Shown here: piece by piece, positions 8,201 to 40,781 of the stretch
Position numbering within the stretch: position 1 is the stretch's first letter
Layout: the number at the start of each line of letters is the position of its first letter
Origin: a virus
Taxonomy: Duplodnaviria; Heunggongvirae; Uroviricota; Caudoviricetes
Strand: one strand, 5' to 3'
DNA: 64,000 nt
IMG/VR virus record: IMGVR_UViG_3300042472_000628
Coordinates: 101,455 to 165,454 of that record
Made by a program: the position numbers and the translations under genes
The notes under the pieces: generated by a model
Database searches by the model: none
Told to the model about the DNA's origin: nothing
Seen by the model: only the letters and a program-made list of their open reading frames with translations

Positions 8201-8276
8201 GCTTTACGTAGTTTAACTTGGTTTGGAACGCGGGCACTGAGCCCGAAGAGTATGGGTTCGAATCCCATGTAAAGAC
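8201..8276 (+). tRNA. tRNA, anticodon uncertain (possibly CTG, Gln)
   Basis: Acceptor gctttac/gtaaaga (1 mismatch); stem cggg/cccg with loop cactgag; T loop ATGGGTTCGAATCCCAT. Confidence 0.4.
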
Positions 8277-8283
8277 ACTATAT

Positions 8284-8355
8284 TGCGGGGTAGAGCAGAG
8301 GTAGCTCAGCGGGCTCATAACCCGAAGGTCGCAGGTTCGAATCCTGCCCCCGCTA
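8284..8355 (+). tRNA. initiator tRNA-fMet (CAT)
   Basis: Anticodon loop ctcataa flanked by GGG/CCC in the anticodon stem (initiator hallmark); unpaired 1-72 position; D arm gagc/gctc; T loop GCAGGTTCGAATCCTGC. Confidence 0.65.
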
Positions 8356-8408
8356 CAAATCTTAAGAAGTAATTAATCTTAAGACTGAATGGTTCGAAAC
8401 ATTCGGAA

Positions 8409-8499
8409 TGATTATGGTGTATGGTGCACAGTAGAAGTTAGTAAGCACATAGTGACTGAGGGCGGACACAGGATTAAGGTTCAAATCCTTATTAATCAG
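8409..8499 (+). tRNA. class II (long variable arm) tRNA-like, anticodon unresolved
   Basis: Acceptor tgattat/ttaatca (6 of 7 bp), T loop AAGGTTCAAATCCTT, length about 91 nt. Confidence 0.3.
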
Positions 8500-8505
8500 C
8501 AAAAT

Positions 8506-8579
8506 TCCTCAGTAGCTCAGTTGGTTAGAGCACCTGACTGTTAATCAGGGGGTCGTAAGTTCGAGTCTTACCTGGGGAG
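8506..8579 (+). tRNA. tRNA-Asn (GTT)
   Basis: Acceptor tcctcag/ctgggga; D arm tagctcagttggttagagca; anticodon stem cctga/tcagg with loop ctgttaa. Confidence 0.75.
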
Positions 8580-8645
8580 CTAACTACCAAAATTGAATGA
8601 TACGAGCCTCCAAAGTTCGAAAGGAGTCAGGTGGTAGTTAAATTT

Positions 8646-8726
8646 GGGAGTGTTGAGCAACGGTTGCTTAGCAGACTGTAAATCTGTGGCCTTACGGCAT
8701 TGGGGGTTCGAATCCCTCCACTCCCA
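8646..8726 (+). tRNA. tRNA-Tyr (GTA), class II
   Basis: Acceptor gggagtg/cactccc; anticodon loop ctgtaaa; long variable arm ggccttacggcat; T loop GGGGGTTCGAATCCCTC. Confidence 0.65.
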
Positions 8727-8735
8727 CTATAATAT

Positions 8736-8806
8736 ACATGTGTGGTGCAATGGTAGCATGACGGTCTCCAAAACCGTTGATGGGAGTTCGAATCTCTCCA
8801 CTTGTG
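8736..8806 (+). tRNA. tRNA-Trp (CCA)
   Basis: Anticodon stem acggt/accgt with loop ctccaaa; D stem gtgc/gcat; acceptor acatgtg/cacttgt has one internal mismatch. Confidence 0.55.
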
Positions 8807-9002
8807 CAAATAATAAGTTGATATGCTGTGAAAACCGAAATGAGCGCAAGTTGAGGTTAGGTGGGTTCGAATCCTGTTCAATAATTCCTATGTGGTGGAG
8901 CCAAGTAACAGATAACATATCATAGCCGATTTGGGTTGTGCACCTCGTCCGAGAAGCCCTAATAGTTCCTAATAGTTCGGTATGGAACAACTTATTATTA
9001 AT

Positions 9003-9076
9003 GGACTTGTAGCTCAGTTGGTTAGAGCACCGCACTCATAATGCGTAGGTCGTTGGTTCGAGTCCAGCCTGGTCCA
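9003..9076 (+). tRNA. tRNA with CAT anticodon (elongator Met or Ile2/lysidine type)
   Basis: D arm tagctcagttggttagagca; anticodon loop ctcataa without the GGG/CCC initiator signature. Confidence 0.6.
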
Positions 9077-9139
9077 CAGAATATGGAACAACATCGATCC
9101 CGTAATGCCATGGCTCGTGCACGAGTAACGGGATGCAAT

Positions 9140-9211
9140 AGTCGATTAGTTCAACGGATAGAACACTGAGCTACGGACTCAGGAATAAGGGTTCGAATCC
9201 TTTATTGACTA
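9140..9211 (+). tRNA. tRNA-Arg (ACG)
   Basis: Acceptor agtcgat/attgact; D stem gttc/gaac; anticodon stem ctgag/ctcag with loop ctacgga. Confidence 0.7.
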
Positions 9212-9220
9212 CAAATATAT

Positions 9221-9294
9221 TGCGGGTTAAAGTTCTGGTGAACTTATCGGTCTCATAAGCCGAATGAAGGGTAGTTCGATTCTGCCACCCGCTA
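9221..9294 (+). tRNA. tRNA with CAT anticodon (second non-initiator copy; Met or Ile2)
   Basis: Anticodon stem tcggt/gccga with loop ctcataa; T loop GGTAGTTCGATTCTGCC; acceptor gcgggt/acccgc. Confidence 0.5.
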
Positions 9295-9300
9295 CTAAAT

Positions 9301-9374
9301 TGCGATATGGTAGAGTTGGTTTCTTACGATGCTCTCATAAGGCATAGACTCTGGTTCGAGTCCAGATATCGCAA
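9301..9374 (+). tRNA. tRNA with CAT anticodon (third CAT species)
   Basis: Perfect acceptor tgcgata/tatcgca; anticodon stem atgct/ggcat with loop ctcataa; T loop TCTGGTTCGAGTCCAGA. Confidence 0.55.
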
Positions 9375-9379
9375 CACAT

Positions 9380-9507
9380 GATTGTACTTGTGCAGGGAAG
9401 CACAGCCCACCGGTAAATTGGGTGCCTTTTAGGCTAGGTTAATTTAAAGATGATGAAGTATCGATCAAGTAATCATCAGGGTTCGAGTCCTCTTACAATC
9501 ACGAAGA
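9380..9507 (+). ncRNA. about 128-nt tRNA-like RNA (perfect 7-bp acceptor gattgta/tacaatc + T-loop-like cagggttcgagtcct) with about 55 extra nt of internal hairpins
   Basis: Acceptor pairing and T loop seen directly; internal hairpins tgtgc-agggaa-gcaca and cacc-ggtaaattg-ggtg; may be an intron-containing tRNA or a stable small RNA. Confidence 0.35.
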
Positions 9508-9532
9508 GAAAAGCGAATAGTAATAATATTAG

Positions 9533-9604
9533 CGGCGATTAGTGGAGTGGTGACCACGCTGGCTATAGGGGCCGGAGAAGCAAGTTCGATTCTTGTATTG
9601 TCGT
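9533..9604 (+). tRNA. tRNA, anticodon uncertain (loop tataggg gives TAG, but no long variable arm and A33)
   Basis: Acceptor cggcgat/attgtcg (2 GU); D stem gtgg/ccac; T loop GCAAGTTCGATTCTTGT. Confidence 0.4.
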
Positions 9605-9795
9605 TATAAAATACTGGCCGCAATAAAATAAACCGGAAGTGTAGTAACGTGACAGATACTTAAGTTGCAAATAAAGTATTTGGTGTAGTTAAGTCTTACG
9701 TGGATTCGCGGTCTTAGGTAAGATGTTTATTTTATACTCTTTTTAAAAGTTTTTAGGGTGGTTCTGGTTCTTCAAAAACGCTATCACCTCCACCA

Positions 9796-9869
9796 GACTT
9801 CGTAGCTCAGTTGGTTAGAGCATCGCACTTTTAATGCGAGGGCCGATGGTTCGAGTCCATCCGGGGTCA
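9796..9869 (+). tRNA. tRNA-Lys (TTT)
   Basis: D arm tagctcagttggttagagca; anticodon stem tcgca/tgcga with loop cttttaa; T loop GATGGTTCGAGTCCATC. Confidence 0.75.
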
Positions 9870-10034
9870 CAATAAACTAAAAATTGTTACAATAAACTAA
9901 TAAGGTTTATTGATACAAAAAGAAGTTTACTGAATATGCTTCACTCATAATACTGCGATCTCTCAGTTAAAAGCTGTCGTAGAGTAAAGTTATAGTCCAA
10001 TATGGCTATAGGTTATGGTAAAGTGAAGCTCCAC

Positions 10035-10109
10035 GCTTTCTTAGCTCAGTTGGTTCAGAGCGCCTCGTTTACACCGAGGAGGTCACAGGTTCGAACCCTG
10101 TAGAAAGTA
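10035..10109 (+). tRNA. tRNA-Val (TAC)
   Basis: D arm tagctcagttggttcagagcg; anticodon stem cctcg/cgagg with loop tttacac; T loop ACAGGTTCGAACCCTGT. Confidence 0.75.
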
Positions 10110-10180
10110 CGACGGTGCACAAAGGGTACATGTCCTGGTCAGAGATTTATTCTCGCAAACTCGATACCTTAAGTTGAGCT

Positions 10181-10204
10181 GCCGATCTACGGGATCGGCT
10201 TTAT
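10181..10204 (+). terminator. hairpin gccgatc-tacgg-gatcggc followed by TTTAT (terminator or processing site inside the tRNA array)
   Basis: Perfect 7-bp inverted repeat directly 5' of tRNA-Leu(TAG). Confidence 0.4.
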
Positions 10205-10284
10205 GCCTGGGTGGTGGAATTGGTAGACACGGCGGTCTTAGAAACCGTGGCGAAAGCTTGAGAGTTCGAGTCTCTCCCTGGGTA
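10205..10284 (+). tRNA. tRNA-Leu (TAG), class II
   Basis: D region tg-gtg-gaattggtaga-cac matches the E. coli tRNA-Leu D loop; anticodon stem gcggt/accgt with loop cttagaa; variable arm ggcgaaagctt. Confidence 0.65.
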
Positions 10285-10287
10285 CTA

Positions 10288-10345
10288 GTGTTCATTATAA
10301 ATGAATGTTCATTGCCAATGAACACATGAAAATAATGAACATATA
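10288..10345 (+). promoter_or_regulatory. array of four 9-bp TGTTCATT/AATGAACA motifs in alternating orientation (two overlapping inverted-repeat pairs)
   Basis: gtgttcatt(10288) .. atgttcatt(10304) .. aatgaacac(10318) .. aatgaacat(10335); candidate operator or RNA structure between tRNA-Leu and tRNA-His. Confidence 0.4.
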
Positions 10346-10348
10346 CAT

Positions 10349-10422
10349 GGTGGTTATAGTGTTAGCGGTTAGCACGTCAGTTTGTGGTACTGATAGCATG
10401 GGTTCGAATCCCATTAATCACC
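10349..10422 (+). tRNA. tRNA-His (GTG) with encoded G-1
   Basis: Anticodon stem tcagt/actga (perfect) with loop ttgtggt; acceptor gtggtta/taatcac preceded by an extra G; T loop ATGGGTTCGAATCCCAT. Confidence 0.65.
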
Positions 10423-10429
10423 CAAAATT

Positions 10430-10514
10430 GGAAGATTGTCAGAGTGGTCTATTGTGCAACTTTGCTAAAGTTGTGGACTTCACGGTCCCGAAGGTTCGAA
10501 TCCTTCATCTTCCG
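10430..10514 (+). tRNA. tRNA-Ser (GCT), class II
   Basis: Perfect acceptor ggaagat/atcttcc; anticodon stem caact/agttg with loop ttgctaa; variable-arm hairpin tggacttcacggtccc; T loop GAAGGTTCGAATCCTTC. Confidence 0.75.
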
Positions 10515-10599
10515 CAAAAAATGAAACTTTTTTAATTGATCAAGTATAATTATCAAATAACAAAGTTCTTTAAAATATTAAAGGTTTCTTACAGCAATT

Positions 10600-10725
10600 A
10601 AAAAGCAATCAGAACCGGTACATTGTAGGTTCGAGTCCTACCTCCTCAACAAATTAACTATGAAAAATTGAGGAGTGGTGAAATTGGTAAACACACTGGT
10701 AAGCAAAAACAGAAACCTGACCATA
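10600..10725 (+). other. apparently permuted tRNA: T arm + 3' acceptor strand (gtaggttcgagtcctac-ctcctca, ending about 10648) lies UPSTREAM of its complementary 5' acceptor + D arm (tgaggag-tg-gtg-aaattggtaaa-cac, from about 10669)
   Basis: Exact complementarity ctcctca/tgaggag seen in sequence; halves are in reversed order on the same strand. Confidence 0.3.
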
Positions 10726-10914
10726 TTGGAATACATACAGCAAATTTACAAACTTTGACTTTTACTCAAACAAACTGTATTCCGTATTTTTAAAATATAA
10801 AGGATGCTTCCAGCAAATTTAAAAACTTTTATTGGAAAAAGCAAATCAGCATCCTGTTATTTTATTCATTTAACTAGCCAGCTTTATTAGATACATATAT
10901 AAATATTACAACAA

Positions 10915-11607
10915 ATGAAAACACATATAATTTATCTAAAGGGCAATGAATTCTCAGAGACCATGGTAAAAGATACCATAAAGTCTTTGAACAAATTCGA
11001 TATCGACTATGAATTATTTGATGGAGTTGTAGGCAGAAAAGGCATTGAAGTTTTAAAATCTTATAATGCAAAACCCTCAGCATATGTTAATATGGAAGAT
11101 TGGACCGATGGTACTATCGGTTGTTTAGCAAGTCATTATTTATTATGGGACGAGTGCTCTAAACAAGATCAACCTTTTTTAATTCTTGAACAAGATGCTG
11201 TTTTAGTTAGAGATCCTAGAGAAATACTACACTTAATAGAAAATGCATGTCATTTAGATGCATATTTACCCTTTAATAATTCAGGTGCTGTTACAGAACA
11301 TGAACACTTTAAAGCTTATAATGATGCTATCAAACTTTATACTAGTGGAGTTAAAAAACACCCTATTAGTAAATTTTATGGAGATAAGTCTGTAACTGGA
11401 AGCACTTTTAGAGGCGCATATGGATATATAATAACACCCAAAGGTGCCCAAGAAATCTTAAATTTTATAAATAAAAAAGGTATATTTCCAGCAGATGCAT
11501 GTTTATGTGAAAATGCTACAGATATTCAAAGATCAAATAGTACATACGTTAGATTAAATCCATTTTTCGAAACATTGGACTTACAAAGAAAATTTTCATC
11601 AAGATAA
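10915..11607 (+). CDS. glycosyltransferase family 25 (LOS/LPS beta-glycosyltransferase-like)
   Basis: GTIGCLASHYLLWDE motif and overall layout typical of GT25 (Lic2B/LgtB-like). Confidence 0.55.
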   Translation: MKTHIIYLKGNEFSETMVKDTIKSLNKFDIDYELFDGVVGRKGIEVLKSYNAKPSAYVNMEDWTDGTIGCLASHYLLWDECSKQDQPFLILEQDAVLVRDPREILHLIENACHLDAYLPFNNSGAVTEHEHFKAYNDAIKLYTSGVKKHPISKFYGDKSVTGSTFRGAYGYIITPKGAQEILNFINKKGIFPADACLCENATDIQRSNSTYVRLNPFFETLDLQRKFSSR

Positions 11608-11611
11608 CCAT

Positions 11612-11685
11612 AGTCATTTAGCTCAGTTGGTTAGAGCGCCTCGCTGATACCGAGGAGGTCGTAAGTTCGAGTCTTACATTGACTA
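11612..11685 (+). tRNA. tRNA-Ile (GAT)
   Basis: D arm tagctcagttggttagagcg; anticodon stem cctcg/cgagg with loop ctgatac; T loop GTAAGTTCGAGTCTTAC. Confidence 0.7.
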
Positions 11686-11689
11686 CATA

Positions 11690-11734: not shown

Positions 11735-14365
11735 TTAACTAAAAGATATTGATATTGGATCACCATATACAAATGATGAAGCTGCTGTTACAGTTTGAGT
11801 TGCTGCAGCAGTGTTAATACTTATAAAACCTGGACCTGCATTAACATACGCCATGTTTGACATAAGAGTGTAAGTTGCTGTATTACCATTTTGTGTAACT
11901 GATATAGTTCCACCGTTATTTTGTAAAGCAGTGAATTGAGTTGTATAATCAGTACCTGCGCTGTCTTTTAAGCAAAAGTTAAGATAGTCAATTCCTGTAT
12001 TATTATTTGGATTAAATGTTGAAAGAGTTCCAGAACCTGAGTTATTATCTGTAAATATCGCTTGACCGTCTGATGTAGGAGGTCCAACTGTGAATGCTCC
12101 TTCAGCAGTATAGAAGTACCAAGAACCTGATCCAGTGTTTCCACCTCCACCGTTGTTTCCACCTTCATCTAAAACAAAAGGTCCTTTATAGTCTTTTGAA
12201 ATATAAACTCCATTTCCTCCTGCGCTCATGCTTAATACACTAATCATAGGAACATTACCTTCAATTGTATCAAATCCTCTTAAAATAGTAGAATTTATTG
12301 TTTCATAAACTAAAGGCATTGCTGTAAGAGTATTAACAACTAAACTTAGATCTTGCGTACTTCCAGGAATTTGATCCATTGAAATTCCGATTATATTGTA
12401 AACATTATATAAGTTACCTCCATTAGTTATTTCAATATTAGTGATTGAGCCACCAGAAACTGTAATTGTAAATTGTGCACCAGTACCTTCACTACCAGAA
12501 TAGTTAGCAGTTTGGTATACATTATAAACACCATCAGTATATGTAGATTCTCCTATGTTTATTGAAACTGTAGCTATAGAATTAAGTTTTTCTTTAAAAT
12601 TCACACCAGATAAACCAACAACATCAACTTTATTATTTTGAAACCAATGACCGATATTATTAGTACTAAAGTTATCAGCGATATGATTACTATAAAAATA
12701 TTCACCAATGTTATTACCAGTAAAGAAATTACCAATTACATTTCCTCTTGATTCACCATAACCAAATCCAAAGTCTGATGCAATAGTGTTATTGGTAAAA
12801 TTATGACCAATTGTATTGAATCTAAAATCATATCCAATTGTATTATTTTGAAAATTATTACCGATGGTGTTATTATCACCACCTTCTAATATATTAGCTA
12901 TAAAATAATTACCAATTACATTATCACCGAAATTGTTTGTGATTTTATTTTCTCTAAATGCATTTCCAATTCTATTGTTTTCAAACGTATCATGGCAAAT
13001 GTTATTACCGAAATCAAAATCAATAGTGTTAGCTATAAATGTATCGTCTATTATGTTTCTTTGAAAATCATCATTGATGATATTTTTCATGAACTCACCG
13101 TTTGACATAGTTACGAAATTATATTTAAAATTATTTCGTATAACATTATTACTAAAATCATAACCATCATTATCAGCTAAAGTATTATGTTCAAAGCCAT
13201 CACCAATTTGATTTCTAGCCATATCACAATCAATCCAGTTATTTGTAAAATAATTTCCAATGGTGTTTCTATCAAAATCATCAGTCATGATATTATTTTG
13301 GAAATAAAGACCTATTCTGTTACCGTCCATATCATCATCAAATGTATTATTTTGTACATTAGCACCAAAATAATTATCATTATATGTACCGTCTAAGAAA
13401 ACATTATTTGATAAAATAAAAGAATTATAGTCTCTATTATCACCTAAATAAGTATTATTACTATCGTTATCATTAAACGTATAAAATTGTTCAGAATTGA
13501 AACGCAAAGATGGTGCATTACATTTAAATGGACTTCTAAGACCTTTTGTCCAACCTTTAGAATATGTAGCGTTATATTCCCAACCATATGAAATACCAGC
13601 AACAGTCATTGTTGTATCATTTTCAATTCCAACAACTTCATAGAAGTTATGACAACCGATATTATTTGTGTTAAAAACAGCAAGATAATCACCAACATAG
13701 AAACTATTTGTAAAACTAGTATTAGTTCCGGTTACTGTTGCATGCATTATTGGTCCATCAGGTCCGATTAATTGTTCTTGTGTTTCAGGATTATACACGA
13801 AAAAAGGTTCTCCAACACTAACAGTACCTTCATAATAAGAATCTGCCATTAAAGCTTCATGTCTTATAAATTGTACATTTCTAAAATCATAATCAGCTCT
13901 ATTATTTCTTTCATCGATTCTTTCTGTAATTCTACCTTTAGCACCACTATTAGTAAACTCAGTTTGATTCCAAGTAACGTCATATTGAATTTTGTCTTTA
14001 GGATATTCTGGTGAATAAGTTGTTGATGAAATTCTATCTGCAGCTAAAGCCAAAACCATTAATGACTCAATATTACCAACTTTATATGTGTTTTCATTAC
14101 TGATAGCATTACCATTCCAGTCAAAATTAGGTTGATCATAGCATGTTTGGAAATCTGTTATCATATAGAAGTTACCCGGTACTAAACCAACAACTGATAT
14201 TAATCCTGTTAATTCAGCATAAGTTAGTTCTGTGTAGTTTACACCTGCAATTTCAGAATATGGTACATGAACTGTAGCACCATTTTTTTCAGCTAAAAAT
14301 AATGTAGTAGCTGTAACTTGATCAATTGGATTTAATTGACCTATTGTTTTTGGAGTTAATGACAT
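11735..14365 (-). CDS. tail fibre / receptor-binding protein with long run of N-x-(I/F)-G-x-N-F beta-helix-type repeats and Gly-rich C-terminal region
   Basis: 876-aa ORF; central region is about 25 degenerate repeats (NNIxxDxFxxNxIGNxF...); composition typical of phage fibres/spikes. Confidence 0.55.
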   Translation of the reverse strand: MSLTPKTIGQLNPIDQVTATTLFLAEKNGATVHVPYSEIAGVNYTELTYAELTGLISVVGLVPGNFYMITDFQTCYDQPNFDWNGNAISNENTYKVGNIESLMVLALAADRISSTTYSPEYPKDKIQYDVTWNQTEFTNSGAKGRITERIDERNNRADYDFRNVQFIRHEALMADSYYEGTVSVGEPFFVYNPETQEQLIGPDGPIMHATVTGTNTSFTNSFYVGDYLAVFNTNNIGCHNFYEVVGIENDTTMTVAGISYGWEYNATYSKGWTKGLRSPFKCNAPSLRFNSEQFYTFNDNDSNNTYLGDNRDYNSFILSNNVFLDGTYNDNYFGANVQNNTFDDDMDGNRIGLYFQNNIMTDDFDRNTIGNYFTNNWIDCDMARNQIGDGFEHNTLADNDGYDFSNNVIRNNFKYNFVTMSNGEFMKNIINDDFQRNIIDDTFIANTIDFDFGNNICHDTFENNRIGNAFRENKITNNFGDNVIGNYFIANILEGGDNNTIGNNFQNNTIGYDFRFNTIGHNFTNNTIASDFGFGYGESRGNVIGNFFTGNNIGEYFYSNHIADNFSTNNIGHWFQNNKVDVVGLSGVNFKEKLNSIATVSINIGESTYTDGVYNVYQTANYSGSEGTGAQFTITVSGGSITNIEITNGGNLYNVYNIIGISMDQIPGSTQDLSLVVNTLTAMPLVYETINSTILRGFDTIEGNVPMISVLSMSAGGNGVYISKDYKGPFVLDEGGNNGGGGNTGSGSWYFYTAEGAFTVGPPTSDGQAIFTDNNSGSGTLSTFNPNNNTGIDYLNFCLKDSAGTDYTTQFTALQNNGGTISVTQNGNTATYTLMSNMAYVNAGPGFISINTAAATQTVTAASSFVYGDPISISFS

Positions 14366-23488: not shown

Positions 23489-24034
23489 ATGAAAATAGAT
23501 TGGATTTTAAAACAACATAAAGATACAAATCACATGTATGATACGTATCTTCCTTATGAATTTCATTTGAGAATGGTTTCAAATGTTGCTCAAGAATTTA
23601 TTAAAGCAATACCTGATACAAATGATGGAGAAACTTCATTTAGAGGATCGGTGCTTTTGGCAGCTTGGGGACATGACCTTATTGAAGATACTCGTGTTTC
23701 TTATAACGATGTAAAAGATCAATTAGGACAAGAAGCTGCCGATATTATTTATGCAGTTTCTAATGAGAAAGGTAAAACACGTAAAGAACGTGCAAACACA
23801 ACTTATTACAAAGGAATTCGTCAAACTCCAGGTGCAACATTCGTAAAACTATGTGACCGTATTGCAAACGTTCAATATTCCAAAATGACTGGAAGTAGAA
23901 TGTTTGAAATGTATAAGAAAGAAAACTCAGACTTCATTCAAGAACTTGGATGGTTTGGAGATGTTACAGACCCTAACTATGAGTTATTCTGTACATTACA
24001 AGAATTATTTGTTGAACCCCGTAAAGAAAAATAA
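23489..24034 (+). CDS. HD-domain phosphohydrolase
   Basis: H ... WGHDLIEDT ... D pattern. Confidence 0.5.
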   Translation: MKIDWILKQHKDTNHMYDTYLPYEFHLRMVSNVAQEFIKAIPDTNDGETSFRGSVLLAAWGHDLIEDTRVSYNDVKDQLGQEAADIIYAVSNEKGKTRKERANTTYYKGIRQTPGATFVKLCDRIANVQYSKMTGSRMFEMYKKENSDFIQELGWFGDVTDPNYELFCTLQELFVEPRKEK

Positions 24035-26236: not shown

Positions 26237-27133
26237 ATGATAACATTAGACTTAGTTAATCCAGAAAAATCAGACATTAAATACAAAATTAGTCAATTTC
26301 CAGATGGTCAACAAACAGTAGACCTTATTGATTGGAATGACTTAATGATATATGAAGATGCTGTAAAAATCAGTTCACGTTTAAATAGTTTTAAGGACTT
26401 AGAATTAATTATTTGTGCAACAGCAGCAATCAGAAATATTAAACCAAATCGAGAAATCGCACTTTACGTTCCATACTTCATGGGAGCTCGTTCAGATCGT
26501 AAATTTGTTGACGGTGGTGTTAACTATTTGAAACAAGTTATTTGTCCAATCATTAACTCTTTAAACTTCATAACAGTAATTACATTGGATCCACATTCAG
26601 ATGTTTTAGAAGCATGTTTAAATAACTATGAGAAAACAGATAATCATACAGTAGTTAAATATGCACTTACAGATATTGATAATAAGAGAGATGCTCAAGA
26701 AAGAATTTGTTTAGTAAGCCCAGATGCTGGTGCATACAAGAAAATCTTTGATGTTGCTAAGAAGTTTCAAATCCAAAATATTGTTACGGCAAACAAAGTT
26801 AGAGATATGAGAACTGGTAACATTCTTAAAACAGAAGTACCAAACTTACCAGGATCTATCGGAGACCCTAACTCAGTTAATGATGATATGAAATATGTAA
26901 TCATTGATGATATTTGTGATGGTGGTAGAACTTTTATTGAATTAGCTAAAGCTATTAAAGCAAGCAGACCAAGTGCTAAAATTTATTTAGTAGTTACTCA
27001 TGGAATATTTAGTGCTGGTTTTACAGAGCTAAACAAATATTTCGAACGTATTTACACAACAAATTCTCATAGAGATATTGCTGATAATGAATATGATGTA
27101 AAAACAAACACAACTGCATTTAAAGTAATATAA
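26237..27133 (+). CDS. ribose-phosphate pyrophosphokinase (PRPP synthetase) family protein; candidate ADP-ribose pyrophosphokinase of an NAD+ reconstitution pathway
   Basis: PRPP-binding loop VIIDDICDGGRTF, VSPDAGAYKK, overall Prs layout; start set at ATG 26237 (track start 26201 lies in the promoter). Confidence 0.6.
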   Translation: MITLDLVNPEKSDIKYKISQFPDGQQTVDLIDWNDLMIYEDAVKISSRLNSFKDLELIICATAAIRNIKPNREIALYVPYFMGARSDRKFVDGGVNYLKQVICPIINSLNFITVITLDPHSDVLEACLNNYEKTDNHTVVKYALTDIDNKRDAQERICLVSPDAGAYKKIFDVAKKFQIQNIVTANKVRDMRTGNILKTEVPNLPGSIGDPNSVNDDMKYVIIDDICDGGRTFIELAKAIKASRPSAKIYLVVTHGIFSAGFTELNKYFERIYTTNSHRDIADNEYDVKTNTTAFKVI

Positions 27134-27348
27134 TGTATACAATAGATTCTTTATTTACACAGCATGGTTACGTTATAGAAATAGAAGTAGACCGTACAAG
27201 TGCTCCAAAGTTTGCATTTGACATATACAAATATGAACACTTTGGTAACTATGAAAAAATTGAAGTAAGAGATTGGTATTTATACAGAACATGGCAAGAA
27301 GCATTCGATGCTGCCATTGAAGAACTAACACAATTAAATTTAATATAA
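27133..27348 (+). CDS. hypothetical protein
   Basis: ORF track. Confidence 0.4.
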   Translation: MYTIDSLFTQHGYVIEIEVDRTSAPKFAFDIYKYEHFGNYEKIEVRDWYLYRTWQEAFDAAIEELTQLNLI

Positions 27349-27349
27349 G

Positions 27350-27484
27350 ATGGCTAAAAAAGCAAAAGCAGTAGAAAAGCAAGTACAAGAAGTTATTGTA
27401 CTAGTACACGATCCAATCTTAGGTTCAAGATATGAATTAAGAGAAGTTGAAGTAGAAGAATCTGAAAACGAGGAAGCAGAGTAA
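27350..27484 (+). CDS. small acidic hypothetical protein (44 aa)
   Basis: Hand translation MAKKAKAVEKQVQEVIVLVHDPILGSRYELREVEVEESENEEAE. Confidence 0.3.
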   Translation: MAKKAKAVEKQVQEVIVLVHDPILGSRYELREVEVEESENEEAE

Positions 27485-27981
27485 TGGAATCTATTTACAA
27501 TAGAGAATATCGAATGTATGGATTGGTGCCTTATAATTTAAGCCCAATCCAACAAGGTATCCAATTTGGACATGCTGTTGTAGAATATGGACTTGACTTC
27601 TTTAATACTCCAGAATACCAAGAATGGGCGAAAATAGACAAAACATTTATTATTTTAAATGGTGGAACTACTAATGACAGTAGCATGAGATTAGGAACTC
27701 TTCAGCAAAACTATTTTGAATTAACAGATCGAGGTATTAAAGTTGGAGAATTTCATGAGCCAGATTTGGGTGATCAAATGACAGCTGTAGTTTTCTTAGT
27801 TGATGACAGAGCATTTGACAAAACCCACTGGCCTGATTATGTTGGTCCATATTATATAGATGGTACAACACCAATCGAAATGGATTATTATGAATGGAAG
27901 ATGAAATTTGCTGAAACAGAAAAGGAAGCAGATCAGATCATTTTCTTAAGAGAATTTTTAAAACGATTTAGACTAGCATAA
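27484..27981 (+). CDS. hypothetical protein; weak resemblance to peptidyl-tRNA hydrolase PTH2 family
   Basis: SPIQQGIQFGHAVVEYG resembles the PTH2 s-x-G-K-i-a-A-Q-x-x-H-A motif; tentative. Confidence 0.3.
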   Translation: MESIYNREYRMYGLVPYNLSPIQQGIQFGHAVVEYGLDFFNTPEYQEWAKIDKTFIILNGGTTNDSSMRLGTLQQNYFELTDRGIKVGEFHEPDLGDQMTAVVFLVDDRAFDKTHWPDYVGPYYIDGTTPIEMDYYEWKMKFAETEKEADQIIFLREFLKRFRLA

Positions 27982-28544
27982 TGGGAGAATTAAACAAATT
28001 TATGAAATCGATGATAGATGTTGATACAAATTATCAAGAAATAGAAGGTGATTTAATTGCACTAGCAAAACAGGGAAAGTTTGATGTAATTACACATGGT
28101 TGTAATTGCTTGTCAAATATGGGAGCTGGAATAGCACCGCAAATGGCAAAAGCGTTTGGAGTTGACCGTTTTGAAATGGAAACTTGGGGAGCAACCATTG
28201 AAAAGCTCGGATGTATCGATTGGCAAACATTCGTCATTGGTCAAAATACAATCTGGTCTTTAGAAGACGCCGATAATAAAAGGAATGAACCTGAATTATC
28301 AGTTGTAAATTCATACACTCAATTCAGATATGGTAAGAATCATACCGATGGAGTTTCAAAACCTTTAGATTATGAGGCATTAACTCTTTGTATGCGTAAG
28401 ATCAATTTTCAATTTGAAGGTAAACATATTGGATTGCCAAAGATTGGAGCAGGATTAGCAGGTGGAGATTGGAATAGAATTAAAAGGATTATTCAAACAG
28501 AATTAAAAGACATGAAAGTGTCGGTAGTAATTTATAAACCATAA
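27981..28544 (+). CDS. macro domain (ADP-ribose binding/processing) protein
   Basis: DVITHGCNCLSNMGAGIAPQMAKAFG and GLPKIGAGLAGGDW blocks align to the macrodomain N-A-A-N...G-G-G-V..A-I and P-x-I-S-t-G-x-y-G motifs. Confidence 0.5.
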   Translation: MGELNKFMKSMIDVDTNYQEIEGDLIALAKQGKFDVITHGCNCLSNMGAGIAPQMAKAFGVDRFEMETWGATIEKLGCIDWQTFVIGQNTIWSLEDADNKRNEPELSVVNSYTQFRYGKNHTDGVSKPLDYEALTLCMRKINFQFEGKHIGLPKIGAGLAGGDWNRIKRIIQTELKDMKVSVVIYKP

Positions 28545-28547
28545 GAA

Positions 28548-28757
28548 ATGAAAGATTTAATAGAAGCGCTAATCATATTAGCTAAATACATGGATCCTGA
28601 ACAAAAATGGCCTACTCATTGCGAACATGATGTTCTTTATGTTTGTCACATTGACGAAGAAGATGTATCCGAAGAGGACACGAAAAGATTAGATGAATTA
28701 GGATTTCATCCAAGCGAAGAAGGCGGATTTCAATCTTATAGATTCGGTAGTTGTTAA
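28548..28757 (+). CDS. hypothetical protein
   Basis: ORF track. Confidence 0.4.
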   Translation: MKDLIEALIILAKYMDPEQKWPTHCEHDVLYVCHIDEEDVSEEDTKRLDELGFHPSEEGGFQSYRFGSC

Positions 28758-29245
28758 ATAAGATGAAGGTTATTTTTCTAGATTTTGACGGTGTATTAAA
28801 TGTAATTCCTCAAGGACATGATGATTTCGGTGGAATATTCCATCCTGAATTTGTAGAAAATCTAGGTAGAATCATTGATGAAACCGGAGCAAAATTAGTT
28901 ATTAGTTCTTCATGGAGACACATGGGATTGGAAAGACTACATAGAATGTGGAAACAACGTCAATATCCTGGAGAAATAATTGGAATTACACCAGATCTTA
29001 GATGGAACCATGATTTAGAAGGTGGCCCAGAAATGGTTCGTGGAGATGAAATACAGTCAATTCTCGATAGACAACCTGAAATAACTAATTACGTTATTCT
29101 TGATGATGACACGGATATGTTAAAGAGTCAACGAATGAACTTTGTACAAACATCGACCAATATTAATCATCCAGATTGTATCGATATTGGTTATGGATTA
29201 ACTAAAGAATGCACAAATAGAGCAATAAGAATTTTAAACAAATAG
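28751..29245 (+). CDS. HAD-superfamily phosphatase
   Basis: Motif I FLDFDGVL, motif II ISSSW, motif IV ILDDD. Confidence 0.55.
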   Translation: MLNKMKVIFLDFDGVLNVIPQGHDDFGGIFHPEFVENLGRIIDETGAKLVISSSWRHMGLERLHRMWKQRQYPGEIIGITPDLRWNHDLEGGPEMVRGDEIQSILDRQPEITNYVILDDDTDMLKSQRMNFVQTSTNINHPDCIDIGYGLTKECTNRAIRILNK

Positions 29246-29248
29246 AAT

Positions 29249-29461
29249 ATGTCACAATCTTCACCAGAAGGAATAATTTTAGGAAAAGGTTCTAAATTAG
29301 TTTCATTTAAAGCTTCAATTGATAATGAAGTAGTTGTTAATATAGAAAAGGACAATGCTTTAGAAAAAGCCATTTCATTATTAAAACAAACAACCGAATA
29401 TGAAGTTTTAGAAAGTTTCAGAGAAAAGGTAAAAAATCTTGAACAATTTAAAAACAAATAA
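29249..29461 (+). CDS. hypothetical protein
   Basis: ORF track. Confidence 0.4.
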   Translation: MSQSSPEGIILGKGSKLVSFKASIDNEVVVNIEKDNALEKAISLLKQTTEYEVLESFREKVKNLEQFKNK

Positions 29462-29951
29462 TATGAAAGTAACAGATAAACATGTATTTTTCTGGAATGG
29501 AATTTACTCACAATGGCATAAAGCTCCAATGACAATTGACAAGATTGAATATAATTCATGTGAACAATATATGATGCATCAAAAGGCATTATTATTTGGA
29601 GATGATATTGTAGCAAGTTTGATTATGGAGGAAACGAATCCAAGAGAGCAAAAGAAATATGGTAGACAAATCCAAAACTTTGATAAAGCAACTTGGGATA
29701 AAAATTGTTTGGCAATTGTTTATGAAGGAAACTTGGCAAAATTCAGACAAAATGCTGGATTAAGAGAAGAAATGTTAAATACTGGTGATCGTATCTTTGT
29801 AGAGGCTTCTCCATTAGATAATATTTGGGGAATTGGTCTTGATGAAAATGCCGAAGGAATTGATGATCCATCATATTGGTTAGGTTTAAATCTTTTAGGA
29901 CAAGCATTAACTCTTGTAAAAAATCAATTAAGAAATGAGACAATCAGGTAA
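29439..29951 (+). CDS. NADAR (YbiA-like, DUF1768) domain protein
   Basis: FFWNGIYSQWH ... SCEQYMMHQKALLFGD ... NLAKFRQN ... NTGDRIFVEASPLDNIWGIG follows the NADAR family pattern. Confidence 0.55.
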   Translation: MNNLKTNNMKVTDKHVFFWNGIYSQWHKAPMTIDKIEYNSCEQYMMHQKALLFGDDIVASLIMEETNPREQKKYGRQIQNFDKATWDKNCLAIVYEGNLAKFRQNAGLREEMLNTGDRIFVEASPLDNIWGIGLDENAEGIDDPSYWLGLNLLGQALTLVKNQLRNETIR

Positions 29952-30219
29952 AACTACAAGATTAGTAGATGCTGCAGTTCAATATTTATTTGAACATGGA
30001 TATATTAAAATTTTAACAAACTTTGAAATATTCAATCAAAAATTCATGAGAGGTTATAGACCAGAGCAAGTTGATATGTTTTTAAGATTTATCGATCCAG
30101 ATACTAGACCAGACAATAGAGCACAACAGTATTTTATTGAAGCATTAGATAGAAGACTTGCAACTGAACACGGAGGAAGCACTGAAAGAATTAGTAGAAC
30201 AGAATTTAAAGTAATTTAA
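29935..30219 (+). CDS. hypothetical protein
   Basis: ORF track. Confidence 0.4.
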   Translation: MRQSGKTTRLVDAAVQYLFEHGYIKILTNFEIFNQKFMRGYRPEQVDMFLRFIDPDTRPDNRAQQYFIEALDRRLATEHGGSTERISRTEFKVI

Positions 30220-30371
30220 TATGAAAAGATTAGTAGAATTATTAGCACCATCATATTTAGGATTTGCTCTATCAGCATTTGCAAATATCAGCTGGTACCA
30301 ATGGGAATTTTATGCAATTATAGTTCCATTTTATATTTTAGTAAAAATAACGGATTTTAATAAAGACGAAG

Positions 30372-30947
30372 ATGAGTAGAACAGAATTTCATACCGGAAA
30401 ATTATATCCAGTCAAAATTGAGAAAAGTTTAGAAGAGACTTGTAGAAGTATTGCAAAACGATTTGATGTTGAATTAGGCGAGGATTGGCAAGAAGATTTT
30501 ATGGATGCTTTTGACGAGTACTCTAATAAAAGAAACAGTCAAAAGGAAGAGTATTTTATCTATGGAGAGAAACTTTATAGAGTTATCGATCATGTAGAAT
30601 CTGAAGATTCAGAATACTTTATGAATGTTACTAGAAATAGCGACGGAAGCCTTTCATTTATGGGACAATTCTATAATGGTGGTACATGCTTCTCTGAAAT
30701 GTTAGAAGAGTCTTTGGATAGATTGAAACCAACCTTTGTTGAACAAATCAAAATTGAAGTTGATAAAATTATCGAAGAGCATGGAGAAAAGATGCCTATA
30801 ACAGTTCCATCTGCAGCAACACTAATCATGAAATATCATGGTATTGAAAGAGCAAGAGAATTATTTGCCGGAGCTTCTAGAGAAACTGAAGGGGATCCAT
30901 TTAAACATTCGGCATATCAAGCAACTTTGCAAATCACTTTAAAATAG
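30372..30947 (+). CDS. hypothetical protein
   Basis: ORF track. Confidence 0.4.
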   Translation: MSRTEFHTGKLYPVKIEKSLEETCRSIAKRFDVELGEDWQEDFMDAFDEYSNKRNSQKEEYFIYGEKLYRVIDHVESEDSEYFMNVTRNSDGSLSFMGQFYNGGTCFSEMLEESLDRLKPTFVEQIKIEVDKIIEEHGEKMPITVPSAATLIMKYHGIERARELFAGASRETEGDPFKHSAYQATLQITLK

Positions 30948-31024
30948 TGAAACAAAATAAAAGTATTTAATATAATACTTATAACCAGCATCCAACTAAC
31001 GACGGTTGCACAATAACATATATT

Positions 31025-31870
31025 ATGAAAAACGATGCATTAGGCGATCGCATGAAAGAGTTCTACGAAGATAGAACTAGAATCAAACTCCCAAGGAGAA
31101 CATTTACAATTATCCGTATTGACGGAAAAGCCTTTCACACCTATACGAAAGGATTAGAGAGACCATTTGACCAAGGACTTATTGAAGACATGAATGCAAC
31201 TACTGCATATTTATGTAAAAACATTCAAGGTGCTAAATTTGGTTATGTACAATCAGATGAGATTAGTTTAGTTCTAACAGACTTTGATGACCTAGGAACT
31301 CACGCTTGGTTTGACAACAACCTACAAAAAATGGTATCAGTTGCTGCTTCTATGGCCACTGCAGAATTCAATAAACTTAGGTTAATGAGATACATGAAAA
31401 ATAGCATGATCTTTTTAGAACCGGAACATATTGAAAAATTCAAAATGGCTGAATTCGACGCAAGAGCATTTCAAATTCCATTTATTGATGAGGTAGAAAA
31501 CTATTTTATCTGGAGACAACAAGACGCTGTAAGAAATTCAATTTCTTCAGTTGCTCAAAGTCTTTATAGTACTAAAGAATTACATGGTAAAAAAACAAGT
31601 GACATGCAAGAATTGATCTTCCAAAAAGGAATCAATTGGAATGACTATGATTTTCGTCTAAAACGAGGTGCAGTAATTGCAAAGGTGGAAGTTCCAGTAC
31701 TTGTAAAAACCAAAGAGTTTATTAATGATGGTGAAACACATGTAATAGACCCTACTCAAATTGTAATGAGAAACAAATGGCAAGTTGTAGAAACTCCAAC
31801 ATTTACACAAGACAGATGGTTCATTAAAGGATTAATAAACCCAACTAAAAACATAGACAATGATAATTAG
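31025..31870 (+). CDS. Thg1-like protein (tRNA-His guanylyltransferase family; 3'-5' polymerase / tRNA 5'-end repair)
   Basis: N-terminal RMKEFYEDRTRIKLPRRTFTIIRIDGKAFH...RPFD...FGYVQSDEISLV parallels Thg1 FEYVRxFE...IVVRIDGKKFH...KPND...GESDEYSF. Confidence 0.6.
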   Translation: MKNDALGDRMKEFYEDRTRIKLPRRTFTIIRIDGKAFHTYTKGLERPFDQGLIEDMNATTAYLCKNIQGAKFGYVQSDEISLVLTDFDDLGTHAWFDNNLQKMVSVAASMATAEFNKLRLMRYMKNSMIFLEPEHIEKFKMAEFDARAFQIPFIDEVENYFIWRQQDAVRNSISSVAQSLYSTKELHGKKTSDMQELIFQKGINWNDYDFRLKRGAVIAKVEVPVLVKTKEFINDGETHVIDPTQIVMRNKWQVVETPTFTQDRWFIKGLINPTKNIDNDN

Positions 31871-32318
31871 AGAACAAATAAATGCAGACTTTATAACTGC
31901 AATGAAAGCAAAAGACGAAGTAGCCAAAATGGCACTTAATAGTATTAAAGCAGCAATCACGAATGCTGAAAAGGGAAATGGAACTTGGGTTGCAACGAAT
32001 GAAGAGGTTATTAAAATAATTAATAAAGGAATCAAGCAACGTGAGGAATCCATTAAAATGTATGATTTGGCAAATAGACCAGAATTGTCTAAAAAAGAAT
32101 CAGAAGAGTGTGCAATCTTAAGAAGATATATGCCAGCACAAATGGAACCTCAAGAAATTGTAGATGCTCTTACAGAAATTATGCAAGAATTTAGTGGAAT
32201 AGTTACAAATCCACAAGCATTACAAGGTAAAACTATTGGCGAATTTAACAAAAGATACCAAGGTCGTGCAGAAATCGGTATAGTTAAGAGTGTTTTAGCA
32301 AATCTTGTAGATTGTTAA
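31860..32318 (+). CDS. GatB/YqeY-domain protein
   Basis: Full-length match to the YqeY pattern (AMKAKD..., IKQREESIKMY, ILRRYMPAQM, GKTIGEFNKRYQGRAE). Confidence 0.55.
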   Translation: MIIREQINADFITAMKAKDEVAKMALNSIKAAITNAEKGNGTWVATNEEVIKIINKGIKQREESIKMYDLANRPELSKKESEECAILRRYMPAQMEPQEIVDALTEIMQEFSGIVTNPQALQGKTIGEFNKRYQGRAEIGIVKSVLANLVDC

Positions 32319-32324
32319 TAACTT

Positions 32325-32394
32325 TTTTAAAATAAATCACCTGATATTTTTTTATGTCAGGTTTTTTATGTATATTTACTCTATAATTAAAAAC
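32325..32394 (+). promoter_or_regulatory. conserved cassette 8 (degenerate TTGTTAATAACTTTTTT; hairpin acctga-T7AT-gtcaggt + T6; ATGTATATTTACTCTATAATTAAAA)
   Basis: Motif instance upstream of the NAMPT-like gene. Confidence 0.6.
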
Positions 32395-32403
32395 AATTAA
32401 TAT

Positions 32404-33984
32404 ATGAACCCATTATTTTTAACAGACGGTTACAAAACAGGACATCACCAACAATATCCAAAAGGAACAACGTTGGTTTATTCAAACTTCACACCTAGAA
32501 GTAATAAGTATGCTCCTAAAGGATGCGACCAATTAGTATCATTTGGACAACAAATGGTAATCAAACAAATTCACGAAGCATTTGACAAAGATTTCTTTAG
32601 CAAACCTAAAGATGAAGTTTGCGGCGAAATGAAACGTGAATTGTCAATGTACTTAAATACTGACTATGATGTTAGTCACTTTGAAGCATTACATGATTTA
32701 GGTTATTTACCAATCGTGGTAAAAACAATCGAAGAAGGTTCTTTAGTACCAATGAGAGTTCCTGTATTGACAATTTACAATACACATCCAGATTTCTATT
32801 GGATTACAAACTACTTAGAAACAATTATTTCTAACTTGTTATGGAAACCAATGACTTCAGCAACTATTGCACATGCTTACCGTAAATTATTTACATCATG
32901 GCAAGAAAAAACCGATGCTGAAAAAGGTTGGTTCGTAGATTGGCAAGCACATGATTTTTCAATGAGAGGTTTAGATTCTATTGATGCAACTATTAGTTCA
33001 GGATTGGGTCACTTAACAAGTTTCTCAGGTTCAGACAGTTTACCAGCAATCTTTGGAGCTCGTAAATTCTATGGAGAAACTGGATTTGTTGCTGGATCTG
33101 TGAATGCAACTGAACACTCAGTTATGTGTGCTGGATCTAAAGAAGATGAGGTTGGAACATTTAGAAACTTGATGGAAACATATCCAACAGGAATTCTTTC
33201 AATCGTATCAGATACTTGGGACTTATGGAAAGTTTGTACTGAACATATTGTTACCTTGAAAGAAGAGATTTTAGCTCGTGATGGTAAGGTAGTTATTAGA
33301 CCCGACTCTGGTGATCCAGTAGATATTATTTGCGGCGCAAGTGTTATTAAAACAAACGCGCACCATGATAATGATGTGGTTGCTTACTTAGGTGGAGTAG
33401 CAGAAGTTAATCCTACCGATGAATATTTAAACAAACCAGAAGTAAAAGGAGTTATTGAATTACTTTGGGATGTATTCGGTGGAACTATCAATGAACAAGG
33501 TTACAAAGTTCTTGATTCTCATATTGGAGCAATCTACGGAGATTCAATAACGTTAGATCGTGCAGAACAAATCTTTACAAGATTAGAAGCAAAAGGTTTC
33601 GCAAGTACAAATATTGTATTAGGCGTTGGAAGTTTTACATACCAATATAACACTAGAGATACTTTTGGTTTTGCAATGAAAGCAACTTATGTTGAAGTTA
33701 AAGAACATTTTAGAACTGTTAAAGACGAGAATGGTAACTATACACATTCAGAAGAAATCATCACAGGTCGTGAAATCTTTAAAGATCCAATCACTGATGA
33801 CGGTATTAAGAAATCTGCAAAAGGTTTATTAAGAGTTGCCGGAGACGAAACATGTTTCTTATTAGAAGATCAATGTACTTGGGAAAATGAAGCCACTGGT
33901 AAATTAAAAACTATCTATAAAGATGGCCAATTCGAAAACCAAACTACACTAACAGAAATTCGTGAACGTTTAACTAATTCATAA
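32404..33984 (+). CDS. nadV: nicotinamide phosphoribosyltransferase family protein (NadV/NAMPT-like); candidate nicotinamide ADP-ribose transferase if paired with an ADPR pyrophosphokinase
   Basis: N-terminus MNPLFLTDGYKTGHHQQYP and length 526 aa are diagnostic of the NAMPT family. Confidence 0.7.
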   Translation: MNPLFLTDGYKTGHHQQYPKGTTLVYSNFTPRSNKYAPKGCDQLVSFGQQMVIKQIHEAFDKDFFSKPKDEVCGEMKRELSMYLNTDYDVSHFEALHDLGYLPIVVKTIEEGSLVPMRVPVLTIYNTHPDFYWITNYLETIISNLLWKPMTSATIAHAYRKLFTSWQEKTDAEKGWFVDWQAHDFSMRGLDSIDATISSGLGHLTSFSGSDSLPAIFGARKFYGETGFVAGSVNATEHSVMCAGSKEDEVGTFRNLMETYPTGILSIVSDTWDLWKVCTEHIVTLKEEILARDGKVVIRPDSGDPVDIICGASVIKTNAHHDNDVVAYLGGVAEVNPTDEYLNKPEVKGVIELLWDVFGGTINEQGYKVLDSHIGAIYGDSITLDRAEQIFTRLEAKGFASTNIVLGVGSFTYQYNTRDTFGFAMKATYVEVKEHFRTVKDENGNYTHSEEIITGREIFKDPITDDGIKKSAKGLLRVAGDETCFLLEDQCTWENEATGKLKTIYKDGQFENQTTLTEIRERLTNS

Positions 33985-34999: not shown

Positions 35000-35070
35000 C
35001 TTTTTAAAAAATAATCAGTCAAACATTTTTTTGTTTGGCTTTTTTTATGTATATTAGCCTTATAATTAAA
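34990..35070 (+). promoter_or_regulatory. conserved cassette 9 (TGTTCGTAACTTTTT; hairpin agtcaaaca-T7-tgtttggct; ATGTATATTAGCCTTATAATTAAAAG)
   Basis: Motif instance. Confidence 0.6.
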
Positions 35071-35081
35071 AGATAAACAAT

Positions 35082-40703: not shown

Positions 40704-40777
40704 GGGGGTGTAGCTCAGTTGGCTAGAGCATCTGCCTTGCACGCAGAGGGTCGCAGGTTCGATTCCTGTCACCTCCA
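40704..40777 (+). tRNA. tRNA-Ala (TGC)
   Basis: Acceptor gggggtg/cacctcc with G3-U70; D arm tagctcagttggctagagca; anticodon stem tctgc/gcaga with loop cttgcac. Confidence 0.7.
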
Positions 40778-40781
40778 CTAA

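Follow-up and report, generated by a model that had tools for sequence, protein, structure and literature searches.

Gene content of the locus

The DNA considered here is a stretch of 64,000 nucleotides from the IMG/VR virus record IMGVR_UViG_3300042472_000628, referred to below as the window. It carries a candidate system for the reconstitution of NAD+ from its breakdown products. The two core enzymes resemble phosphoribosyl pyrophosphate (PRPP) synthetase (PRPS, or Prs) and nicotinamide phosphoribosyltransferase (Nampt, or NadV). A Macro-domain protein is encoded between them. The three genes are as follows.

26237 to 27133, plus strand: Adps-type PRPS-like enzyme, predicted ADP-ribose (ADPR) pyrophosphokinase (ADPR + ATP -> ADPR-PP + AMP, ADPR-PP being the pyrophosphorylated form)
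27981 to 28544, plus strand: Macro-domain protein, Poa1p-like, homologue of Adpp; predicted ADPR-1''-phosphate phosphatase giving ADPR
32404 to 33984, plus strand: Namat, predicted nicotinamide ADPR transferase (ADPR-PP + nicotinamide -> NAD+ + pyrophosphate (PPi))

The first open reading frame (ORF) encodes 298 amino acids from an ATG codon. An alternative TTG start 36 nucleotides upstream would yield 310 residues, and alignment with relatives favours the ATG. The NAMPT-like ORF encodes 526 amino acids. Products of the same two lengths are called by JGI on an identical metagenomic contig (L003), in agreement with the original prediction of two co-oriented genes about 5 kb apart. Pfam assigns the domains Pribosyltran/Pribosyl_synth to 26237..27133, and NAPRTase and NAMPT_N to 32404..33984. 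The two genes are 5,270 bp apart within an unbroken run of plus-strand genes, with 12 co-oriented ORFs of at least 50 amino acids between them (13 in the JGI calls).

The source of the window is a large uncultured phage. A near-identity DNA search with an 8.2-kb block against 50,697 phage records returned a 52-bp match at best, so that no cultured close relative exists among them. Protein relatives of 75–100% identity are numerous and lie on metagenomic contigs of 160–290 kb; one contig of 165 kb encodes an identical Namat.

Subfamily assignment of the core enzymes

The original prediction did not choose between canonical Prs and NadV, with their PRPP and nicotinamide mononucleotide (NMN) chemistry, and the ADPR-specific enzymes Adps and Namat, and proposed a comparison with characterized members of each. 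Both window proteins side with Adps and Namat. Residue discriminators, trees and profile controls all fall on the ADPR side.

Namat differs from Nampt by an adenine 'selectivity clamp', built from a helix with a conserved motif (SCH) and a β1–β2 loop (SCL) that is variable and exceeds that of Nampt in length (PMC12774641). The SCH consensus, absent from Nampt, is GS-X-Φ1-X-Φ2-X-Φ3-TRD, and aromatic residues X at positions 3 and 7 stack the adenine (PMC12774641). The third residue of the SCL is Arg, Lys or Tyr; when it is Lys or Tyr, stacking is assigned to the fourth (PMC12774641). In the window protein the SCH reads G409-S-F411-T-Y-Q-Y415-N-T417-R418-D419. This 11-mer fits the consensus and is identical to that of the crystallized Namat of SpβL1. 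Xanthomonas (Xcc) Nampt has GGALLQKVDRD at this position and the phage NadVs have GG-L-type sequences. The window SCL, TPRSN-K35-Y36-APKGCD, is five residues longer than the loop of Xcc Nampt and, judged by its sequence, has the Lys-Tyr pair expected of a Namat. It belongs to the Lys-aromatic type, as do those of ICP1 (K-Y) and the Bas63-type protein (K-W).

The catalytic core is kept as D8, Y10, F185, R188, D211, H238, R299 and D301, the reference being D13, Y15, F189, R192, D215, the catalytic His, R306 and D308 of SpβL1 Namat. Bacterial and human Nampt share the fold, the catalytic His and the NMN-site residues with the window protein, but lack the adenine clamp; identity to Xanthomonas Nampt is 35%. 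A further signature, IYGDSIT, is common to the window protein and all Adps-linked homologues, whereas NadVs carry IQGDGIN. The best Protein Data Bank (PDB) matches are 9W5X/9W5W at 485 bits, which are SpβL1 Namat according to the data-availability statement (PMC12774641); Xanthomonas Nampt and human NAMPT reach 207 and 177 bits. The protein is 53.5% identical to SpβL1 Namat and 29–35% identical to the Nampt/NadV references. In a neighbour-joining tree of 14 sequences, a set comprising Xcc Nampt and the NadVs of GAP32, XZ1 (KVP40-like) and phiCbK is separated from the window protein and all Adps-linked homologues in 200/200 bootstraps. By motifs, matches and tree, the protein is a Namat and not a NadV. 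Two lineage-specific insertions, at residues ~314–346 and ~435–453, make it about 35 residues longer than the Namats of SpβL1 and ICP1.

PDB entries 9KE8/9KEO, solved as a 'nicotinamide phosphoribosyltransferase', also fall in the Namat clade and are 48% identical to the window protein. Their SCH, GAQTYQRNTRD, deviates from the published consensus at positions 2, 3 and 7.

The Prs-like protein can be compared with structures of ICP1 Adps, in which the PP loop and donor site (C215–S220, F221) are remodelled, residues contacting ADPR and ATP are defined, and the C-terminal α11–α12 module of PRPS is lost (PMC13586617). The alignment included Adps of ICP1 (taken from GenBank) and of Vibrio phage Gary, the Bas63-type Felixounavirus protein, three Namat-linked phage proteins and E. 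coli PRPS. The window PP loop, D224–F233, is DDICDGGRTF, identical to that of the Bas63-type protein and in agreement with the ICP1 loop (DDICDGAASF); E. coli PRPS has DDMIDTGGTL. ICP1 residues F18, R87, F92, H121, D161 and K185 are kept as F21, R85, F90, H120, D163 and K187, and D212, D213, C215, D216 and F221 as D224, D225, C227, D228 and F233. PRPS departs from ICP1 Adps at the positions of F92 (V in E. coli), C215, G217 and F221. The catalytic Lys is retained, as are the equivalents of PRPS K194, D220 and D221 in a common fold.

The C-terminus and the profile scores agree with the residues. After the TH-IF motif 45 residues follow in the window protein, 67 in E. coli PRPS (22 more) and 40–46 in validated-type Adps, and the TIGR01251 match stops at profile position 272 of 309. 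The α11–α12 module thus appears from sequence to be lost. Against a TIGR01251 cut-off of 113 bits the window protein scores 77.1, validated-type Adps 98–125 and E. coli PRPS 423; the window protein falls far under the cut-offs of all PRPS equivalog models. Its identity to E. coli PRPS is 21%. In a tree rooted on nine gammaproteobacterial PRPS, the split between PRPS and the phage proteins is found in 200/200 bootstraps, and the lineage of the window falls within the phage Adps. Among PDB structures, a set without those of ICP1 Adps, the best matches are ordinary PRPS (E=2e-12). Taken over motifs, tree and profiles, the Prs-like protein is an Adps. PHROG families were dropped as subclass discriminators because E. 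coli PRPS also matches phrog_619 (193 bits) and NadVs match phrog_448 just as Namats do.

These assignments bear on a more conventional explanation, canonical salvage of the NARP2 type. In this scheme the Prs-like enzyme would supply PRPP, the NAMPT-like enzyme would form NMN, and an NMN adenylyltransferase (NMNAT) would be encoded outside the window. NARP2, as found in Vibrio phage KVP40 and in GAP32, combines NadV/Nampt with a bifunctional NMNAT-Nudix enzyme; it shares with the window Namat the NAPRTase/NAMPT fold and catalytic core, and with the proposed pathway the purpose of NAD+ restoration. The names given by Pfam, PHROG and NCBIfam are those of Prs and NAMPT, Namat enzymes retain PRPP-to-NMN activity in vitro (PMC12774641), and most of the genome lies outside the window. 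Every non-overlapping ORF of at least 60 amino acids in the window was scanned against Pfam, the sequences being submitted as concatenated sets. No CTP_transf_like/NMNAT, NadR, PnuC or RyR domain was found, which agrees with the earlier remark that no NMNAT is recognizable in the window. The only Nudix protein, also to be counted in favour of salvage, is a stand-alone product of 162 amino acids without an NMNAT domain, encoded at 56595..57083, 22.6 kb downstream. Were this protein to hydrolyse ADPR, it would rival Adps for that substrate.

Against canonical salvage stand the clamp motifs and clade of Namat and the PP loop, truncated C-terminus and sub-threshold PRPS score of Adps. The GG-LLQ motif and the short SCL loop of the NadV type are missing from the window Namat, which is 29–33% identical to phage NadVs and falls outside their clade; its partner in the window is an Adps and not an NMNAT. 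In the NARP2 reference GAP32 the gene two upstream of NadV encodes a bifunctional NMNAT/ADPR-pyrophosphatase, and no NMNAT domain occurs in the 64 kb examined here. In phiCbK the gene adjacent to NadV is annotated only as a NUDIX-domain protein. The original prediction was to fall if both proteins clustered with bacterial Prs and NadV and an NMNAT was encoded in the phage; within the window neither is the case. Canonical salvage is accordingly rated very improbable.

The Macro-domain protein

NARP1, the phage system composed of Adps and Namat, has a variant with an accessory phosphatase, NARP1-AP. The ADPR-1''-phosphate phosphatase of this variant, Adpp, has been validated biochemically as gp182 of Vibrio phage Gary (bioRxiv 10.64898/2026.01.28.702374), and examination of the Gary operon places gp182 between Adps and Namat. 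The Macro protein of the window is 30% identical to gp182 over its full length (tblastn E=2e-9, BLASTP E=4e-17), and phrog_335 is the best match of both. Yeast Poa1p (6LFU) is matched over nearly the full length with phmmer (E=4e-4). The Pfam Macro match is sub-threshold, at 17.1 bits against 22. A Macro homologue is found in 18 of the 37 informative relatives described below, and lies between Adps and Namat in two of them (L047 and L074). An Adpp-homologous Macro ORF between Adps and Namat identifies the locus, by comparison with Gary, as a probable NARP1-AP system.

Conservation of the gene pair

Eighty related IMG/VR loci were collected with the Namat protein as query, and the 37 with at least 8 kb of flanking sequence on both sides were treated as informative. 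An Adps homologue lies within 10 kb of Namat, on the same strand, in 37/37, so that the pairing is not due to chance. Adps lies upstream in 30 of these loci and downstream in the other 7. Gaps between the two genes have a median of 973 bp and extremes of -35 and 9371 bp; six loci have a gap below 200 bp. L047 and L074 have the compact order Adps, Macro, Namat seen in Gary, and other relatives contain progressively more inserted genes. By this continuum, from overlapping genes to a 9.4-kb gap, the operon is normally compact and has been expanded in the window.

The pairing is not confined to this lineage. It recurs in the unrelated cultured phages ICP1, Gary, Azalea, ctKR88 and a Felixounavirus, and a Namat homologue adjoins 97% of Adps-clade genes (bioRxiv 10.1101/2024.02.11.579819). 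Both observations count against the notion that the two genes are unrelated neighbours in an island of auxiliary genes, their co-occurrence being no more than the common ancestry of closely related contigs. That notion draws on the 5.3 kb and the separate putative transcription units between which the genes are divided, and on the phylogenetic non-independence of the 37 relatives, whose Namat identity is 69–87%. Linkage nevertheless outlasts rearrangement: it is kept through both relative orders, through the whole range of gaps, and with differing genes in between. Already disfavoured on these grounds, this explanation is extremely improbable.

Transcriptional organization

Direct comparison of the regions upstream of the two core genes identified a common intergenic cassette, from eight copies of which a profile was then built. 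The following features are concerned.

26156 to 26238, plus strand: cassette copy of ~80 nucleotides (short hairpin and T-run, then GTATATTTAC-TATAATTAAAAACAA), ending at the Adps start codon
32322 to 32403, plus strand: second cassette copy, ending 1 nucleotide before the Namat start codon (nhmmer E=2.3e-13)
32339 to 32362, plus strand: terminator-like hairpin (9-bp stem) and T-run from a consensus scan, inside the Namat-upstream cassette
35017 to 35040, plus strand: terminator-like hairpin and T-run, closing the putative Namat-headed unit and overlapping the cassette copy at 35001..35077
3648, 4086, 7334, 16881, 21124, 21755, 26156, 32322, 35001, 40836 and 41964: cassette sites, within 3648 to 42047
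4175 to 4789: phage sigma factor (Sigma70_r2 and r4), with a cassette copy upstream

The copies preceding Adps and Namat have a mean column identity of 85%. All 11 copies found with the profile in the window are on the plus strand and end no more than 38 nucleotides from the next gene. Their common layout is a hairpin and T-run followed by GTATATT(T/A)(A/G)C…TATAATTAAAAACAA. One copy precedes the sigma-factor gene at 4175 and another precedes part of a tRNA array. Among cassette-carrying relatives the element immediately precedes Adps in 15/22 and Namat in 10/29, and it precedes none of the 11 further neighbourhood genes that were tested.

The cassette is probably a phage-specific terminator/promoter unit, and the sigma factor is a candidate regulator of this promoter class. 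Two copies, those preceding Namat and the gene at 35082, have a hairpin that scores as terminator-like, and the one at 32339..32362 suggests that Namat begins a separate transcription unit. The simplest reading of the layout is that of two consecutive units under one promoter class, 26237–32318 and 32404–34999, each headed by a core enzyme. A generic sigma-70 promoter scan is uninformative, since it gave fewer matches (57 sites) than shuffled sequence (70.8).

Proposed pathway

The locus very probably equips a large uncultured phage with an NAD+ reconstitution system of the NARP1-AP type. The pathway can be formulated by analogy with the characterized systems. (i) A host defence would cleave NAD+ to nicotinamide and ADPR. 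(ii) Adps would pyrophosphorylate the terminal ribose of ADPR at the expense of ATP, yielding ADPR-PP and AMP. (iii) Namat would exchange the pyrophosphate for nicotinamide, so that NAD+ is regenerated directly and PPi released, with neither an NMN intermediate nor an adenylyltransferase. (iv) The Adpp homologue would convert ADPR-1''-phosphate to ADPR and phosphate, making the pathway effective also against RES-type defences. (v) Together, the three reactions would reverse NAD+ depletion by TIR, SIR2, DSR, SEFIR and RES-type defences. The compact operon would have been expanded by inserted genes; with each core gene the first after the same cassette, the two are probably co-expressed.

Several points weigh against this proposal. 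The core genes do not form the contiguous two-gene operon that is typical, but not biochemically defining, of NARP1: 12–13 genes and a terminator-like hairpin intervene before Namat. The Macro family phrog_335 occurs in 2,537 phage records, mostly without NARP1, so that homology by itself does not fix the substrate. At three donor-site positions of ICP1 Adps the window protein has a different residue (V195->L, C197->T and F223->E, the last change being found also in the Bas63-type protein). The internal branching of the Adps tree is weak, 20/200 bootstraps placing the window lineage with PRPS, and its narrow outgroup is limited to Gammaproteobacteria because the scan of genome contigs gave only sequences from this class, at 80–99% identity. 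As Namat enzymes retain PRPP-to-NMN activity, the window Namat could by its sequence form some NMN. The 64 kb covered belong to a genome of probably 165 kb or more, and for this phage the proposal is drawn from sequence.

The system itself is well described; the unusual part is the layout with separated core genes. NARP1 occurs in 4.3% of sequenced phages, or 859 genomes (bioRxiv 10.1101/2024.02.11.579819). The NARP1 loci of Bas63, SpβL1 and Fado (Osterman et al., bioRxiv 10.1101/2024.02.11.579819) contain the same enzyme subfamilies in linked, co-oriented genes. The window differs from them in the interrupting genes and in the insertions of its Namat, and its proteins are 31% (Adps) and 43–54% (Namat) identical to the characterized ones. 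With NARP1-AP of Gary it shares the gene-family order Adps, Macro/Adpp, Namat. In the window, by contrast, the Macro gene is third or fourth after Adps and nine genes before Namat, and its product is 29 amino acids longer than Gary Adpp. A published detection rule for NARP1-AP asks for the accessory gene 'within two genes' (bioRxiv 10.64898/2026.01.28.702374), and this position lies outside it. NARP3 consists of a PnuC-like transporter and a NadR-like enzyme; the window encodes neither domain. The NARP1 of mycobacteriophage DyoEdafos is coupled to RyDEP (PMC13232231), likewise an accessory enzyme that makes ADPR from a non-canonical NAD+-derived molecule. The RyR-domain protein of that system has no counterpart in the window by Pfam; the accessories here are Macro, NADAR and PF15891 proteins.

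The known mechanism is unchanged by the core finding. NARP1-AP would be extended to a widespread uncultured lineage of environmental phages of 160–290 kb, and the locus illustrates that genes of a pathway can move kilobases apart by insertion, yet stay linked and retain a common upstream cassette. Rules that require adjacency, or an accessory gene within two positions, would miss or mis-score such loci and thus undercount both NARP1 and NARP1-AP.

Inserted and neighbouring genes

The genes between and beside the core pair are listed here with their Pfam matches, or PHROG match for the first.

27484 to 27981, plus strand: protein of 165 amino acids, phrog_3668 'hydrolase', directly upstream of the Macro/Adpp gene
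28763 to 32318, plus strand: inserted block between the Macro gene and Namat, comprising the next four genes and small ORFs
28763 to 29245, plus strand: HAD_SAK_2
29463 to 29951, plus strand: NADAR
31025 to 31870, plus strand: Thg1-like
31860 to 32318, plus strand: YqeY-like
34243 to 34719, plus strand: nucleoside 2-deoxyribosyltransferase-like protein (PF15891)

The protein of 165 amino acids gave no match in Pfam, NCBIfam and PDB searches. It is found in 11/37 relatives, in 10 of which its gene is directly upstream of the Macro gene. HAD_SAK_2, NADAR, Thg1-like and YqeY-like genes are each present in 6–11 of the 37, at variable positions, and are for this reason regarded as passengers or optional accessories and not as part of the core.

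By their domain matches the inserted genes have an ADP-ribose/RNA-repair flavour. In one relative (L007, 16343..19407) a PolyA_pol gene of the CCA-adding type, a T4-type RNA ligase and an AAA_33 kinase stand beside the pair. Such genes around the NAD+ genes may constitute a combined tRNA-repair/ADP-ribose island. NARP1 chemistry might then serve in housekeeping and not in counter-defence, recycling the ADPR and nicotinamide that the phage itself liberates in reactions consuming NAD+, for instance the RNA-repair or ADP-ribosylation cycles handled by the Macro, NADAR, HAD_SAK_2 and Thg1-like neighbours. Besides the flavour of the inserted genes and the nucleotidyltransferase, ligase and kinase of L007, this idea can point to Poa1p, the closest characterized relative of Adpp, which acts in tRNA splicing (bioRxiv 10.64898/2026.01.28.702374), and to the 26 tRNA genes in the window. 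It is at odds with the Pfam scan, in which no Tpt1/KptA-type 2'-phosphotransferase or ADP-ribosyltransferase domain appeared in the window. The RNA-repair-type genes are each limited to the minority of relatives noted above, against 37/37 for the Adps-Namat pair, and every NARP1 tested experimentally acts in counter-defence (bioRxiv 10.1101/2024.02.11.579819). A housekeeping role is on balance unlikely, and counter-defence by NAD+ reconstitution is the preferred interpretation.

After Adps, the most consistent neighbour of Namat is the PF15891 gene, linked to it in 26/37 relatives. It lies at most ~6 kb from Namat in at least five different arrangements, and in three loci (L053, L054 and L096) it is located between Adps and Namat, the slot taken by Adpp in NARP1-AP. 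The fold of its product is that of the N-glycosidases Rcl, MilB and NDT. No link of this protein to NARP1 was found in the literature searched. Its frequency, its proximity despite rearrangement, the slot it takes in three loci and its fold have suggested an undescribed accessory enzyme of NARP1. As an N-glycosidase or transferase, it would supply NARP1 with a substrate made from some non-canonical derivative of NAD+ or from an immune signal. The proposal is doubtful. The enzyme might act on an N-linked ADPR conjugate, a cyclic ADPR isomer or NMN, and the role may parallel by analogy those of Adpp on ADPR-1''-phosphate and RyDEP on 2'/3'cADPR. In phage Tunturi_5 a PF15891 match is found at the N-terminus of an ORF of 1,262 amino acids annotated as MutT/NUDIX. 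The Macro, NADAR, PF15891 and 165-residue proteins are together candidates for further enzymes through which unusual products of NAD+ breakdown would enter the pathway.

Other features of the window

The 26 tRNA genes comprise an array of 25 (5053..11686), in which almost every amino acid is represented, and a single tRNA-Ala gene apart from it (40704..40778). The array accounts for an ORF-poor stretch of higher GC content. The sole long minus-strand gene, 11735..14365, lies where the GC skew is locally reversed. It encodes 876 amino acids with degenerate Asn/Gly repeats ('NN-F--N-IG'), gave no match in the Pfam scan, and may specify a fibre or beta-helix protein.

A cluster of the sugar/lipopolysaccharide biosynthesis type occupies 51089..56269 and 60291..61043. 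Its members include a protein of 1,067 amino acids with GT9 and GT1 glycosyltransferase domains, an NAD-dependent epimerase/dehydratase, a 4HBT thioesterase and a DAHP_synth_1-family (KDO8P-synthase-like) gene.

Upstream of Adps, 23489..24034 encodes an HD-domain phosphohydrolase (phrog_990; weak HD_4 match). In the Leptolyngbya phage Lbo-JY46 a protein annotated guanosine-3',5'-bis(diphosphate) is encoded ~6 kb upstream of a Namat-like gene, and may be a relative of this HD-domain protein.

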